Positions 3,307-13,217 of a DNA stretch of 64,000 bases are shown here, piece by piece; the stretch's first letter is position 1, and each line of letters starts with the position of its first letter. The translations under genes and the position numbers were made by a program. This DNA is from Promethearchaeia archaeon (GTDB lineage: Archaea > Asgardarchaeota > Lokiarchaeia > Sigyniarchaeales > SOKP01). Where the stretch lies: positions 1 to 64,000 of the forward strand of contig JAHQWK010000023.1 in NCBI GenBank assembly GCA_029856145.1. The letters are read 5' to 3'. The notes under the pieces were generated by a model that worked only from the letters and a program-made list of their open reading frames with translations, made no database searches and had not been told where the DNA came from.

Positions 3307-3858
3307 ATGACATTAACTCATATACCAAAGGTTTTATACCAAAATAAAATAACCGAAGTGTTAGACGATATTAGATATAACTACGGTAAATTAACTCGAA
3401 GAGGATATATCTATGGACTCATAGCAATCGATCAAGATGCAAAAATTATTGCCATCGATTCTCGATTTGACAGAAAACTCAATTATTGGGATTTAAGCTC
3501 GATTGGAGCAGCATTATACGGAGTCGCACGACAAGGGCAAGATTTTTTTGAAACTGAATCTTTAGAACGTGCCACGATTATTTACAGTGATATGCGTTTG
3601 TTTGTCAAGTCCATTGGAAATATTGAGCTCCAAAAGAAGGGAAAGCGAGACATTCTTATTGTTCTTTTAACTGATAATGAAGTGAATTTAGGCGTAATGA
3701 TCCTTCAGATGAGTAAGTTTGCTCAGAAAATCAAGGAAGAGATCGAGAGAAATGAGCACATGAAGAATGTCCTGAAGATGCCAGAAAGAGAAATTAAAGA
3801 ACATATCAAAGAGCTCAAGAAACAGATATTTAAAGACAAAATCGGAACCATCTCTTAA
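3307..3858 (+). CDS. Roadblock/MglB-like protein
   Basis: Roadblock-like pattern (GLIAIDQDAKIIA...SSIGAALYGVARQ...ILIVLLTDNEVNLGVMIL), directly upstream of an MglA-type GTPase. Confidence 0.65.
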   Translation: MTLTHIPKVLYQNKITEVLDDIRYNYGKLTRRGYIYGLIAIDQDAKIIAIDSRFDRKLNYWDLSSIGAALYGVARQGQDFFETESLERATIIYSDMRLFVKSIGNIELQKKGKRDILIVLLTDNEVNLGVMILQMSKFAQKIKEEIERNEHMKNVLKMPEREIKEHIKELKKQIFKDKIGTIS

Positions 3859-3881
3859 GACTCAAAATTTCAGGTGATTAA

Positions 3882-4544
3882 ATGGAATTAGAGCAGAGGA
3901 ATTTAGATAAGTTTGATAAAGTGAAGGTGGAAGTAAGTGAGGATTTTGATTTCAATGATTCAGAAAATATGATTCAATTTAAAATAGTATACTGGGGTCC
4001 AGGTGAAAGTGGAAAAACTACCAATTTTTTTAGATTACGAGAAAAGTTTGACTTGTTGAAACTTACTCGTGGGTATTCCATAGAAACAACTGAAGGAAGA
4101 ACTCTATGGGAAGATTCTCTGTATCTTCTTTTCAAATTCACACTACATGATGTTAGATTTAATATAATATGCCACGTGGTGACGTGTACTGGACAAGAAA
4201 GATTTCTCTCAACTCGTGAATATGTATTAGATGGGGCAGATGGCATTATGTTTATTGGTGATTCTAATCCTAAAAAAATAGAACAAAATAAAAGGAGTTT
4301 TCGTGAGTTGGTAAGTTTTGCCAAACTCAAAGAAATCCCTTATTTAATTCAGTTGAATAAACGAGATTTAAAGAAAGCCATCCCTATCAAAGACTTTAAA
4401 CTTCATTTAGGCCTTCCACTCCAAGAATCATACCCCGATGGGACCTTAGTAGTGTATCCCGCAGAGGCACTTCAAGGAAAGAACGTGGTACAATCGTTTA
4501 CTGATTTAATACTTCAAGTTATTTTCAACTATTTTAAAGAATAA
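3882..4544 (+). CDS. mglA: MglA-family small GTPase
   Basis: KIVYWGPGESGKTTN (G1), GRTL (MglA Arg finger), TCTGQ (G3), DGADGIMFIGDS, QLNKRD (G4). SD CAGGTGA upstream. Confidence 0.85.
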   Translation: MELEQRNLDKFDKVKVEVSEDFDFNDSENMIQFKIVYWGPGESGKTTNFFRLREKFDLLKLTRGYSIETTEGRTLWEDSLYLLFKFTLHDVRFNIICHVVTCTGQERFLSTREYVLDGADGIMFIGDSNPKKIEQNKRSFRELVSFAKLKEIPYLIQLNKRDLKKAIPIKDFKLHLGLPLQESYPDGTLVVYPAEALQGKNVVQSFTDLILQVIFNYFKE

Positions 4545-4576: not shown

Positions 4577-6217
4577 ATGGATACAGGTTCAGATTTTATA
4601 CAACCAGAATTTCTCAATATAGTTTTTTTTCAGCAGAAGAACTTAGTGGTTTTTCCCTATGTTGATTTGAGACACCTTCATGGCTTAGAGATATTTACTG
4701 CCGGATATAATGTGGTCGACCTTGAGTCCACAGCACTTCATAACCTTAAAGATATATTAGAATTCGAATCGAATAATTCTTATTCTCAGAACCCTACCCT
4801 ATATTTTATATTCAATGTGGATCGGGAAAAAATAAAAGAATTAATGGAGTTGGACGGAATTCGGTGTATCATCAACTCAAATGAAAATATTAGTAATTTA
4901 GCAAATGGAAGTAAATTTATTTTCTTTAATAAGAAGAACAATCAGTTTTTAAACTATAACATTACTGCTCCAGAATTAAAATTCGAAAATTCACTTATTA
5001 CAAGTTCTCAAGATGAAGATATCTTACAGGAAAATATTCAAAAAATTAAGATTGCTGCGACCAGAATTTTTAAAGAGTTAAATCAGTCCGGTACATTGGA
5101 AACTCTTCCTGATATCCTTGGTGAATATGATAGAAAATATTGGAACTCAATTTTAGAATTTACAAGTCGATATTATGATATTAATATTCCTGATATCTCA
5201 GGTATAAAGTTTAAACCTCAAAAGAGGCTAAAGGATTTTTCGGATGAATATGAAGTGCTTATTTCGACAAATCGAGCGCTTGGAAAGGAGTTTATCCAAT
5301 TGCTACATGATTTTAGAAGTACAAGAGTAAATCCTGCCCATTTAGAGTTGGACGAGTTATACAACCCTCAGAAGCTTTTCAGTTATTTACGGAACCATCA
5401 TTGGAAGGAAGGGATTCCGAAAGACTTTGTTGAGGAATGGTATCAGATGAATATTTCAGATTATCAATTAAGTGAATCAGATCAGCTCGACTTTGAGAAA
5501 ATAGTTAAAAAGTTAGGATTAGAAGTTGATTTGCAAAACTCATCTTCAACTCCATCTAAATCGACTTTACCAGAGTTCGAAGTTGATTCTTCAGCGCAGA
5601 TTTTACCTATCATACCTTCACCAAGAACAGATTGGAACAAATATAAAGATTGGATTGAGGATCGTCTAACAGATTTAGAACGATTAAGTTCTGACATTCC
5701 AAGATCTTCTAATACACACTCATATATAGATAAAGAATTTTCTGATATCCATAAATTACTTAATGAGAACGTAATTAAGAATAGAGAAGAATTCCAGGAT
5801 GTTGATCTTAAGGAAAGATCACCTATGAATAATGAATTATTAATTGTTGACATAACCAATATTCTAAATTTAGATAAAACTAAGAACGGATCTTTGAAAA
5901 TTGATAATATTTTAAATGTTAGAAATACTTTAAAATCGCTTGGATACAAGCCTTTAATGATTGCTGATGCTAATATGAGATATTATCCTTTAGATAATCC
6001 TCAGTTATATGAAGAATTACTTCAAAAAGGAACTTTAACTCAAGCACCTGCAGGAAGAAAAGCAGATGAATTTGTATTGGAATTCGCAAAGACAGAAGAC
6101 TGCAAATTTCTTGCTAACGATATGTATAAGGATTTTTATAAGGAATTTGGAAGAGAATGGATTTTCGAACACCGTCTTGCATGTATGCTTGTGAATGGAA
6201 AGCTTATTATGAGGTAG
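4577..6217 (+). CDS. Multidomain protein with C-terminal Zc3h12a/Regnase-like PIN (NYN) ribonuclease domain
   Basis: C-terminal IVDITN, IADAN, PAGRKADEFVL and LANDMYKDF acidic motifs. S/T/P-rich linker. N-terminal ~320 aa not recognised. Confidence 0.7.
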   Translation: MDTGSDFIQPEFLNIVFFQQKNLVVFPYVDLRHLHGLEIFTAGYNVVDLESTALHNLKDILEFESNNSYSQNPTLYFIFNVDREKIKELMELDGIRCIINSNENISNLANGSKFIFFNKKNNQFLNYNITAPELKFENSLITSSQDEDILQENIQKIKIAATRIFKELNQSGTLETLPDILGEYDRKYWNSILEFTSRYYDINIPDISGIKFKPQKRLKDFSDEYEVLISTNRALGKEFIQLLHDFRSTRVNPAHLELDELYNPQKLFSYLRNHHWKEGIPKDFVEEWYQMNISDYQLSESDQLDFEKIVKKLGLEVDLQNSSSTPSKSTLPEFEVDSSAQILPIIPSPRTDWNKYKDWIEDRLTDLERLSSDIPRSSNTHSYIDKEFSDIHKLLNENVIKNREEFQDVDLKERSPMNNELLIVDITNILNLDKTKNGSLKIDNILNVRNTLKSLGYKPLMIADANMRYYPLDNPQLYEELLQKGTLTQAPAGRKADEFVLEFAKTEDCKFLANDMYKDFYKEFGREWIFEHRLACMLVNGKLIMR

Positions 6218-6232
6218 AGGAGTAGTAATAAG

Positions 6233-7543
6233 ATGGAAGTTATTAAATTTAATTTACAGAAGAAAAGAACATTTTTAATCGTACTGTCCCTATATTTTGG
6301 AATTTATTTATATTTAGGAGTTGTACCTGCAAATATCGATAATCTGCTCACAACTCTTCTTGGTACATCAAACTTCGGTGTGAGTTTCATCATAACAGCA
6401 GGGTTAATAGCAAGTACTTTTAGTATGTTATTATTCGGATATTTTGGAAATGACCTTTCAAGAAGGTTTGGAAGGAAAAATGTATTTCTTATCACTAATT
6501 TAGTATGGATTATATCTATTGGGCTAGTATGCATATCCCCTAATTATCCATTTTTCTTGTTGTTTTTTATCATAGGAGCTATCGGTAATGGTGCCTTTTT
6601 GCCCATTGGCTTTTCAATAATAGGAGATTTATTTGGTCCAGAAGAAAGAGGAACTAAGTTTGGGACAATGTATTTTGGGCTCTTTTTAGGAAACGGATTA
6701 GGAATATTATTCGGTGGATTGTTAAGTTGGAGGCTAGGGTTTTTTATCGGTAGTATATTCGGATCTGTTGCGCTTTTTGCCTATTTTAAATTTGGTATTG
6801 ATCCTAAACAAGGATATTCTGATCCTGAATTAAAGACTTTAGATAAGACTATGCTATTCAATTATAGAATAACCCTTTCAGACTTGATTCAATTAGTCAA
6901 AACAAAAACAGTTATAGGTATTTTACTATCTGTGTTTTGCTCTGGAATAGCCACCTCTACACTTTCAAATTGGGGTATCTTTTATTTAGATCTTCAAATA
7001 AACAATAAAATGGTCACGATTGTGCTATATACGGTTGCCGGTTTGGGAGCACTCGGTGGGGCGAGAATAGGAGGCATGCTAGGAGATGAATATTTCAAAA
7101 ATGGAAAGATAAATGGTCGTGTGAAGGTATCTATTGCCGGAATAGTTCTTGGAACCTTACTATTACTAGGATTTTATCATAATACATTCGTTATGCTAGG
7201 GCTTTTCGGTTATTTTTTTGTATTTTTCAGCGCGGGAAATCAATTTGCTATCTATTCGGACGTGTGCATTCCAGAATTAAGAGGGGCTGCAAATTCATTG
7301 AATGGAATTATGATAAATATGGGAGGGATTGTGGGGAGTTTATTTGTCTCATCCATTATCCAATCTGATATCACATTGATATCGGTTTCAATTGTTATTG
7401 TATTAATTATTTGGTTAATCGGTTCTGTTTTTTGGCTAATTTCATATTTTTATTACTCTAAAGATTTTCAGGTACAAAGGATGAGAATGATGTCTCGAAT
7501 TCAAGAATTAGAAATAATACAGTCAAGGGCAAAATTAAAATAG
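6233..7543 (+). CDS. MFS transporter
   Basis: About 12 TM segments; FGYFGNDLSRRFGRK (MFS motif A-like), DLFGPEERG, PELRGAANS. Confidence 0.9.
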   Translation: MEVIKFNLQKKRTFLIVLSLYFGIYLYLGVVPANIDNLLTTLLGTSNFGVSFIITAGLIASTFSMLLFGYFGNDLSRRFGRKNVFLITNLVWIISIGLVCISPNYPFFLLFFIIGAIGNGAFLPIGFSIIGDLFGPEERGTKFGTMYFGLFLGNGLGILFGGLLSWRLGFFIGSIFGSVALFAYFKFGIDPKQGYSDPELKTLDKTMLFNYRITLSDLIQLVKTKTVIGILLSVFCSGIATSTLSNWGIFYLDLQINNKMVTIVLYTVAGLGALGGARIGGMLGDEYFKNGKINGRVKVSIAGIVLGTLLLLGFYHNTFVMLGLFGYFFVFFSAGNQFAIYSDVCIPELRGAANSLNGIMINMGGIVGSLFVSSIIQSDITLISVSIVIVLIIWLIGSVFWLISYFYYSKDFQVQRMRMMSRIQELEIIQSRAKLK

Positions 7544-7669: not shown

Positions 7670-7834
7670 ATGACAAGTGAAATTAAGAATTATCCTGAAA
7701 ATGATCTTTTTTCATGCCCTTTTATTCATCTGTGTGTCTTACCAAAGAACGTGCATTGCCATATTTCACGATGTAAAGTCTGCACTGAATATATTCTTAA
7801 ATGCAAGGATTTAAAATCAAAGCACCTCTACTAA
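7670..7834 (+). CDS. Small Cys/His-rich putative metal-binding protein
   Basis: ATG at 7670 inside ORF 7580..7834; CPFIHLC...HCHISRCKVC...C. Confidence 0.5.
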   Translation: MTSEIKNYPENDLFSCPFIHLCVLPKNVHCHISRCKVCTEYILKCKDLKSKHLY

Positions 7835-8002
7835 AAATTATTTTTTTCTTTTTAAACACCCAAAATAATGAAGAATCATGATTAATACAAAGAGAAAAAA
7901 GAATAATTTAATTGATTAAGTTTTAAGTCCACAATATTTTGTGAATTAAGGGGTTAATTAATAACTAAAATTTTTATATTAGTTAACTACTTTATAAGTT
8001 AT

Positions 8003-8163
8003 AGGCAGAAATATTCTTGAAAAGACTTGAACCACAAAATATGGCTCCTGTCAATCCCCTGGATTTTTGTCTTTTGGTTGTGTAATTATTTACACATAGG
8101 AATAACCTACTCTGCCTTTTGAAAATTTTAGGCCTCATTTTGAGGCTTTTTGGCAGGAGCCTC
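8003..8163 (+). ncRNA. Candidate structured, pseudoknotted ncRNA of unknown class
   Basis: GC-enriched island between convergent genes. Helices: 8003-8009/8111-8117, 8043-8054/8150-8161 (crossing), 8130-8148 hairpin and two small hairpins. G-U pairs favour the + strand. TTTTATA box ~25 nt upstream. Confidence 0.55.
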
Positions 8164-8251
8164 CTTTAATTGAATTTTAAGAGAGTTTCATAATCTTTTT
8201 TTTAAAAAAAATTAAACAGAATTAAAAATACAGTAAGGACCAAATTTGAAT

Positions 8252-9097
8252 TTATAATAATAAAAACATTTCTAATAAGAACAAGTCTAATTTTAAATCC
8301 TTTAGTAATTTCATATTATTGAAAATATATGCATAAATATTTTCTTCACTAAAATACTTAAAACACACGTTTTTACCTTTTATTTCCTTAAAAATATTCA
8401 CAATTCCAGAAATAAATGATTTTAAATTTTTAATTACTAAATCCTTATCACTTTTTATTAAATTTATATCTATTAGGTTAAACCAAGACTCCTTGCTAAA
8501 TGTAATATTTTTAAGCCCTGGCGTGTTCTTAAAATCTTTTTGAGTAATAAATGTATTATACATTTCTTCTATTTTATTTAGAATTGAAGTTTTTGATTTA
8601 CTATACATTTTGTTATCTACTACGTTTCTTAACATTATAAGGATTTTTTGAAAGATACCTAATATATCAAAAAAATCAGCCGTTTGTGCTAGATCTTCCA
8701 CTTCTTCCCATTGATCATGATAATCTTCAATTTCATTAAGAAATGGTAGGAAAATATTAATATCTCCATCCCAATTATGCCCTTTTTTTTTCCAGACAGA
8801 ATCAAATTGTTTTATAAAAGCGTTTTTAATAACATTTAGTCTAGCTAGTATAAACTCAGTTTTCGTATGCCTCGTGTCGGCAGCAACAAAAAGTAATTTA
8901 TAATTTTCTTCTAATATATAAACCCACCTTAATCCCCCCATTTCTATAGAATCCAATGACTCTTGAAACTCTATCATAGAAAAATGGTGAAAAGCCGTTA
9001 AGAATCCAGAAACAATATCTTCATCAGCACTAGTTTTCAAAAAGGATTTGTATAGTAATTTAGTTCCTGATTCAGAATCTAATACCCATATATTCAT
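8252..9097 (-). CDS. Longin-domain protein (Asgard type), paralog of 26655..27500
   Basis: MNIWVLDSESG..L.YK...DIVSGFLTAF..F....LDSIEMGGLRWVY longin-like pattern. Full-length similarity to 26655..27500. Confidence 0.7.
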   Translation of the reverse strand: MNIWVLDSESGTKLLYKSFLKTSADEDIVSGFLTAFHHFSMIEFQESLDSIEMGGLRWVYILEENYKLLFVAADTRHTKTEFILARLNVIKNAFIKQFDSVWKKKGHNWDGDINIFLPFLNEIEDYHDQWEEVEDLAQTADFFDILGIFQKILIMLRNVVDNKMYSKSKTSILNKIEEMYNTFITQKDFKNTPGLKNITFSKESWFNLIDINLIKSDKDLVIKNLKSFISGIVNIFKEIKGKNVCFKYFSEENIYAYIFNNMKLLKDLKLDLFLLEMFLLL

Positions 9098-12801: not shown

Positions 12802-12902
12802 CTCAAGGTTTTGTTAGTTAACTGAGGATTTACAAAACTTCAACTTTTTTTTGAAAATGTAAATTTTAAATTTTAAAATAAATTATTATATTTGGAACAT
12901 TA

Positions 12903-13196
12903 GGCCAGTTCTGCAATCCTAAACTGGATGAACCGTAAAACGGTCTCTAGCGGAAATTGCCTGAATTCAGGTTTCATGAATATATTATCCAATCTTATGT
13001 TCCGTCGAAGCGCTCCCCATAATGGTAGGTATCAGAGCAGTACCTTTTGTAGGAAAGGTATAAGCTCATAATTAGAAAACCGGACAGGTCCGGGAGGAAG
13101 CATCCGTAACTATAGATATTTACGCTTTATGGTAAGGGTGTGGAGGGGCATGAGATCTTATGGTCATAATAGTAGGATTGATATCGAGATTCAGGA
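12903..13196 (+). ncRNA. ffs: Archaeal SRP (7S) RNA
   Basis: Helix 8 CGGA-CAGGTCC-GGGA-GGA-AGCA-TCCG (13081-13106); helix 6 TACCTTTT-GTAG-GAAAGGTA with GNAR loop (13041-13060); 5' Alu-like hairpins; CCTGAAT/ATTCAGG closing helix; ~295 nt ending at a T-tract. Confidence 0.9.
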
Positions 13197-13217
13197 TTTT
13201 TTAACTATTAATCTTGA

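Follow-up and report, generated by a model that had tools for sequence, protein, structure and literature searches.

The Sm site has the consensus PuAU4-6GPu (PMC3710371) and is expected to have stem-loops on both sides, with the 3′ stem-loop adjacent to it (PMC6954390). According to the literature, U-rich RNA is also bound by archaeal Sm proteins, and the archaeal Sm-like proteins are little characterised (PMC9887622); our literature search turned up no Sm-site RNA described from Asgard archaea. We analysed a 64,000-nt stretch of DNA from a Promethearchaeia archaeon (the window; contig JAHQWK010000023.1, Lokiarchaeia), in which a first-pass annotation had proposed an independently transcribed, structured RNA between two convergent genes. 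Each segment that it listed was found in place, including 8043-54 and 8150-61, which pair over 12 bp with one U-G pair. The interval 8043-8161 on the plus strand belongs to a structured RNA family with four members in the host genome, the other three lying at C4:46419-46552 (−), C11:154047-154180 (+) and C22:109845-109983 (+). On comparative sequence evidence, it is an uncatalogued folded non-coding RNA gene of about 120-160 bases, whose multicopy nature and invariant core the annotation had overlooked. The Rfam comparison that the annotation recommended returned no family, with zero matches at the window locus and at five homologous loci, and a literature search, outside which most subscription papers fell, found no published description of such an RNA. 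The family matches no described RNA family.

To trace its distribution, we used a 20-nt core search pattern with one mismatch tolerated. This pattern was present in 125 of the 134 genomes (about 93%) of the host's Lokiarchaeia family, at 1-14 copies per genome, while a reversed control pattern gave zero hits among the matches listed. Across the 400 genomes searched, the core pattern had no match outside the host's order. A covariance model matched 49/49 host-family genomes and pointed to a version in the sister family, where 11 of 14 genomes carry a variant whose core is displaced by one base and which has an additional hairpin in the P2-P3 interval. Cultured Lokiarchaeia strains probably belong to this RNA-bearing sister family, in which minus-strand copies lie at G044:C1:1198523-1198660 and G055:C1:3151866-3151994. 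In other Asgard lineages the combined model found nothing credible, divergent homologues being conceivable there; matches of model R3 beyond the two families were weak, with the three best-looking ones inside ORFs, and a short-pattern scan of the wider Asgard archaea stayed at background level. A full copy (L136:667-800) was also seen inside a Patescibacteria-labelled bin, on what is probably a misbinned Lokiarchaeia contig.

The plus-strand interval 8000-8170 folded with z = −3.1, none of 200 shuffles being as good, and the P1-closed domain 8043-8161 with z = −5.8. P1, the universal closing helix, has its arms at 8043-8054 and 8150-8161. Inside it lie, in order, the U-rich core (8059-8078), the P2 hairpin (8079-8096, arms 8079-85/8090-96), the pyrimidine-rich linker J2a (8097-8119), the J2b segment or P3 foot (8120-8134) and the P3 hairpin (8130-8148, arms 8130-37/8141-48), which is missing in one genus (L033-L036). 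In the alignments, J2a bears a CCUCCUCCCC run in paralogues; in the window copy it holds the segment 8111-17 and a TAGG/CCTA hairpin (8097-8100/8106-09), which the annotation had counted as part of the structure and which turned out to be non-conserved and broken in many orthologues. A second AUUUUUG word occurs in J2b of many copies. Covariation was assessed mainly in an alignment of 54 diverse copies that was built from sequence only. Two-sided changes were seen in 9/10 pairs of P1, where 91.6% of cells were paired, in 6/6 pairs of P2 and in 5/5 pairs of P3, and helix cells were paired in 90.6% of cases, compared with 39-51% in slid controls of the same alignment. The sister family displayed the same covariation pattern in 24 of 35 predicted pairs. 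Higher covariation counts came from a model-fitted joint alignment that is biased towards structure, and, because kin share ancestry, no such count is to be read as a probability. The search for homologues with compensatory changes, which the annotation had suggested, thus yielded relatives in two families, with such changes in P1, P2 and P3.

Since the minus strand folds too (z = −4.2), we tested the strand separately. Over 55 distinct P1 helices, chosen by Watson-Crick score only, G-U outnumbered A-C by 23 to 11, and the plus strand gave the better fold in 101 of 121 copies, both in agreement with the strand originally proposed. A pyrimidine/U tail directly 3′ of P1 is likewise on the plus strand; a comparison of the P1 duplex only did not favour that strand (74 vs 99). 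The preference for G-U over A-C also bears on a DNA-level reading, in which a MITE or recombination site would mimic an RNA. Such an element would account for the dispersed copies (1-14), for the resemblance of P1 to terminal inverted repeats, and for inserts that split some copies at the core, where some contigs also stop. However, besides the G-U preference, the sequence of P1 varies freely and P1 is nevertheless kept in 98.9% of full-length copies, three or four helices covary independently, two syntenic loci have persisted for long (42 and 26 genomes), the flanks carry no target-site duplication and no transposase is among the recurrent neighbours. We consider a DNA element very unlikely.

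The RNA occupies an ORF-free gap, with an MFS transporter gene (6233-7543, +; Pfam MFS_1) and a Cys-rich ORF on the plus strand and a convergent gene for a 281-aa protein without Pfam match (8252-9097, −). The MFS neighbour, which differs among orthologous loci, does not belong to the RNA system, and the 281-aa gene is fixed beside the window paralogue across the genus (26 loci). In the neighbour survey, the dispersed copies were linked to no gene class, and the orientation classes numbered 55, 34, 23 and 19 of 131 loci (which are not independent), with unrelated neighbours. The presence of all four orientations, together with the lack of any kept reading frame, indicates a free-standing RNA. 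With the fold beating its shuffles, orientations mixed and Rfam empty, the description of a structured, free-standing RNA of no catalogued class holds. A cis-regulatory leader or riboswitch was rejected on the same four orientations and unrelated neighbours, and a type III antitoxin RNA on its single dispersed copies and the lack of a recurrent partner gene. The Cys-rich ORF (7670-7834, +; 54 aa) is one of five members of a small family in the host genome; it was dismissed as a partner of the RNA, being directly upstream of it at only 3 loci. Further upstream in the window, a Roadblock/longin-like gene precedes one for a small Arf-family-like GTPase (3307-4544, +), and 4577-6217 codes for an NYN ribonuclease domain protein.

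A TATA-like box, TTTTTATAT, was recognised in the sequence at 7971-7979 (+), with a BRE-like A-rich stretch 5′ of it (7963-70). The annotation had placed a TATA-like element ~25 nt ahead of 8003, and the other copies agree: TATA-like words peak ~70 nt 5′ of P1 on the plus strand (167 copies; orthologues inflate the peak), and in the window subfamily the box lies 31-36 nt ahead of the leader motif. Transcription would start near 8001-8004, giving an RNA from about 8003 to 8167. The tail (A/U)CC(C/U)UUU (8162-8167, +), conserved by position counts in 167 copies, is likely the 3′ end or a terminator, and a terminator-like match falls at 8142-63. One read set labelled metatranscriptomic, which is probably DNA, contains one contig, of 188 nt and depth 3, that spans 7998-8185 without flanks; coming from one study, as contigs only, it is given no evidential weight here.

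We then considered the 5′ leader, which the annotation had placed in a pseudoknot. The leader motif (8003-8016, +), defined by motif counts and register energies, forms the 5′ arm of P0 and has as possible partners the P3 foot, the core or, in the window copy, 8111-17. It is followed by an A-rich, variable spacer (8017-8042) of which neither length nor sequence is conserved in alignment A4. Leader pairing of −14 kcal/mol or better was found in 35 of 138 dereplicated copies, compared with 1 for a far-upstream and 9 for a downstream control. The leader region that pairs is located 40-70 nt 5′ of the core and the signal is strongest at −55 to −45; these leader-pairing tests identify the P3 foot as the conserved partner and 3′ arm of P0. 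When the leader arms were aligned by a four-letter anchor only, 238 cells were Watson-Crick, against 213±5 with swapped partners. The helix shows T-A/C-G exchange, paralogue subfamilies have complementary leader and P3-foot sequences that are wholly different, and in the L015 variant the pairing to the core is broken and that to the P3 foot intact. The motif GRCARRRRT, derived from the complement of the core with only A or G permitted opposite core U's, is carried between −80 and −40 from the core by 25 of 131 dereplicated copies, against 0-3 occurrences per 20-nt bin elsewhere. The leader helix is missing from most copies, was undetected in the sister family and is absent from the viral copy described below. 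Judged from these alignments, a P1-crossing helix is real in a host-family subset, roughly one quarter to one third of the copies. The pseudoknot topology thus survives for this subset, with a covarying leader helix that crosses P1 and has the P3 foot or the core itself as its conserved partner. The particular register 8003-09/8111-17 is not conserved: among 21 orthologues it outperforms the two other pairings in just one, which is the window copy. The annotation had made that pairing the main helix and had assigned the pseudoknot to 8043-54/8150-61; conservation reverses these roles, P1 being the universal helix. In computed folds of the growing transcript of the window copy, leader-core pairing forms first, and the leader helix may serve in timing or as a folding intermediate, rather than form a stable pseudoknot.

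Alternative folds of this kind would also be expected of a ligand-sensing switch or a ribozyme, with P0 and P1/P3 as the alternatives or with the junction as a catalytic or ligand pocket. Consistent with this idea, the covarying leader helix crosses P1, the two folds of the window copy are nearly equal in energy, and the viral copy is flanked by co-directional genes and shows no evident promoter of its own. However, a same-strand downstream gene is missing at 53 of 131 loci, the window locus included, and where one exists the median distance from core to start is ~400 nt. Conservation is concentrated in one U-rich block, not in scattered junction residues, and there was no match to Rfam riboswitches or ribozymes. 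It is therefore improbable that the RNA acts as a switch or a ribozyme.

The core is a 19-nt U-rich element with 18 columns without change in alignment A1, and across both families invariance is limited to it, a figure that is inflated because most copies were gathered via the core pattern. In copies found by the model, the core is mostly kept, with few variants and a few decayed examples. A candidate 4-bp core hairpin, GGAU/GUCU (8061-64/8069-72), is predicted around a loop of four U's; its pairs are invariant, so that they carry zero covariation signal. In the sister-family core these two 4-mers have exchanged places on either side of the U4 loop, which fits recognition of shape or by a protein. 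All paralogues within a family carry one core variant, suggesting that they track one partner, and the presentation of a single invariant U-rich block by helices free in sequence, as is usual for protein or ligand sites, points to a protein.

The same core could be read as the seed of a trans-acting guide or antisense RNA. Bacterial sibling sRNAs pair with ribosome-binding sites, and here either the core or a CCUCCUCC-type linker would recognise such sites or a conserved RNA. An unbroken stretch of 17-19 invariant nucleotides looks like a seed, the one-base register shift between the families (U5-GUC-U4 vs U4-GUC-U5) could reflect a change of target, and many paralogues carry an anti-Shine-Dalgarno-like run. 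Nonetheless, pairing to 16S, 23S, 5S and SRP RNA was no better than that of shuffles, genomic complements numbered 33 vs 38 for the reversed control, and the C-rich run is not kept by the window copy, so we regard base pairing as a doubtful explanation, loosely paired mRNA targets being conceivable. A small-peptide gene or leader peptide, suggested by an ATG immediately 5′ of P1 in ~70% of copies, is essentially refuted: each of three frames through the core has an in-frame ATG in some copies (41%, 25% and 27% of 170), and synonymous variation is absent from it.

A full copy of the RNA is present in a virus (G400; L061, L386, L402) whose complete genome of 224,826 bp has direct terminal repeats and encodes at least five tRNAs as well as MCM-like and Cdc6-like proteins; it is probably a jumbo virus with a putative Lokiarchaeia host. 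Further viral matches comprised the core only and were set aside as chance. Mobile elements are known to insert at tRNA genes, and some copies of this RNA are similarly interrupted. In G233:C35 (L214:2005-4712), a 2.7-kb insert with a PadR regulator, a membrane protein and short subterminal inverted repeats splits a copy at the core CTG, leaving CTG at both junctions; at L079:1341-3329, a Cdc6 gene adjoins half a copy, behind which comes an island encoding a retron-like reverse transcriptase. We interpret these split copies as conserved RNA genes hit by insertion. Separately, in the host genome ~30-bp near-identical direct repeats containing the 3′ part of the core (G000:C7:4172 and 2414, −) flank one 454-aa ORF and, with it, adjoin an NYN-like gene; the pair is possibly an insertion scar or a cassette junction.

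Taken together, we propose that this stand-alone small RNA gene encodes a protein-binding RNA, serving as a scaffold or decoy, to which we assign a probability of about 45%. In accordance with this proposal, no complementary target was seen among rRNAs, SRP RNA and genome-wide words. The RNA would be transcribed from the TATA box, from about 8003 to 8167. During synthesis, the 5′ leader would pair with the core and later shift to the P3 foot, and the closure of P1 with this shift would liberate the core. A uridine-specific protein might then bind the core, either single-stranded or as a small U4-loop hairpin, and additional copies and the viral copy could add to or titrate the resulting RNP.

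Sm-like proteins are the most likely candidates for the partner, an assignment that is possible and clearly tentative; their binding would produce an Sm-site-like RNP. The host genome has three clear Sm-like genes, with an RG motif, at C7:113985, C1:51129 and C16:2836, and both flanks of the core are helical and covarying, with P1 ahead and P2 directly behind. The strict consensus is departed from in both families, the host-family word being G-A-U5-G-U with a final pyrimidine and the sister-family word U-A-U4-G-U, a near match that is U7-like. Relaxed Sm-like words occur in ~1 in 9 random 120-nt stretches of the AT-rich host genome, and the position of the core within the P1-closed junction, possibly paired, argues against an Sm site. 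Sm genes were found in 33 of 34 Asgard genomes tested, from most of which the RNA is missing; with Sm genes so nearly general, co-occurrence of the two is uninformative. The 225-kb virus carries no Sm gene. A far bolder version, which we offer as a long shot, would be an snRNP-like prokaryotic particle with a dedicated Sm-type site, a heteromeric ring of Asgard Sm paralogues, leader-timed exposure of the site and viruses that supply or subvert it. If true, this would be the first archaeal RNA organised around an Sm site. The RNA, with up to 14 copies and a jumbo-virus copy, offers a concrete candidate ligand for Sm-like proteins; should the partner differ, it would still be an uncatalogued, strongly conserved RNA class within a lineage near the origin of eukaryotes.

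Among known RNAs, the models for 5S, SRP, RNase P, tRNA and tmRNA were unmatched in Rfam and ARAGORN reported nothing at the locus, Rfam gave no match to known self-cleaving ribozyme classes, and no RUGAUGA was found, in line with the earlier exclusion of tRNA, SRP, RNase P and C/D RNAs. Likenesses to a tRNA-like end (A-U before P1, N-C-C after), the histone stem-loop, Y RNA and the ENE triple helix were left unused, being partly unconserved across the families. Known classes of RNA gene were also encountered elsewhere. A divergent SRP RNA gene in the window (12880-13199, +) reaches 83.8 bits where the Rfam gathering score is 96.5, and is thus missed by a standard scan; the host genome has a tRNA-Sec gene (G000:C8:12915-13007, −) and a highly divergent 5S rRNA (G000:C5:30916-31034, −; L404; 28.9 bits), 5S scores being mostly sub-threshold in the host family, with ordinary 5S genes in the sister family. 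RNase P RNA was undetected in the host assembly, which has no bearing on the RNA family.

The window RNA resembles 5S rRNA in its ~120 nt, its terminal helix with a three-way junction and its dispersed copies, but there is no sequence match and the genomes have separate 5S genes. Likeness to box C/D guides is seen in the sister family, whose P2 base is flanked by GAU and (U)UGA in a k-turn-like manner, and in the CUGA 3′ of P2 in many paralogues; unlike these guides, the window RNA has no box C, second motif or rRNA complement, and its subfamily does not have the CUGA. The protein-sequestering or sibling sRNAs of bacteria (CsrB/RsmY-type, LhrC and CCUCCUCCC-motif RNAs; cf. PMC4132741) are similarly free-standing and multicopy, with conserved unpaired motifs on variable helices, and the C-rich run of many Lokiarchaeia paralogues adds to the resemblance. 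However, these bacterial RNAs carry repeated GGA or CU motifs, whereas the window RNA is archaeal and has one long U-rich block. Compared with the Sm-class snRNAs (U1/U2/U4/U5 and U7), the window RNA differs in having its site in a P1-closed junction and possibly in a hairpin, in having no Rfam match and in that no pairing partner was found for it. It shares with these snRNAs and with SmAP-bound archaeal RNAs an A-U(4-5)-G word between helices, a length of 120-160 nt, a multicopy nature and Sm-like proteins encoded in the same genome.
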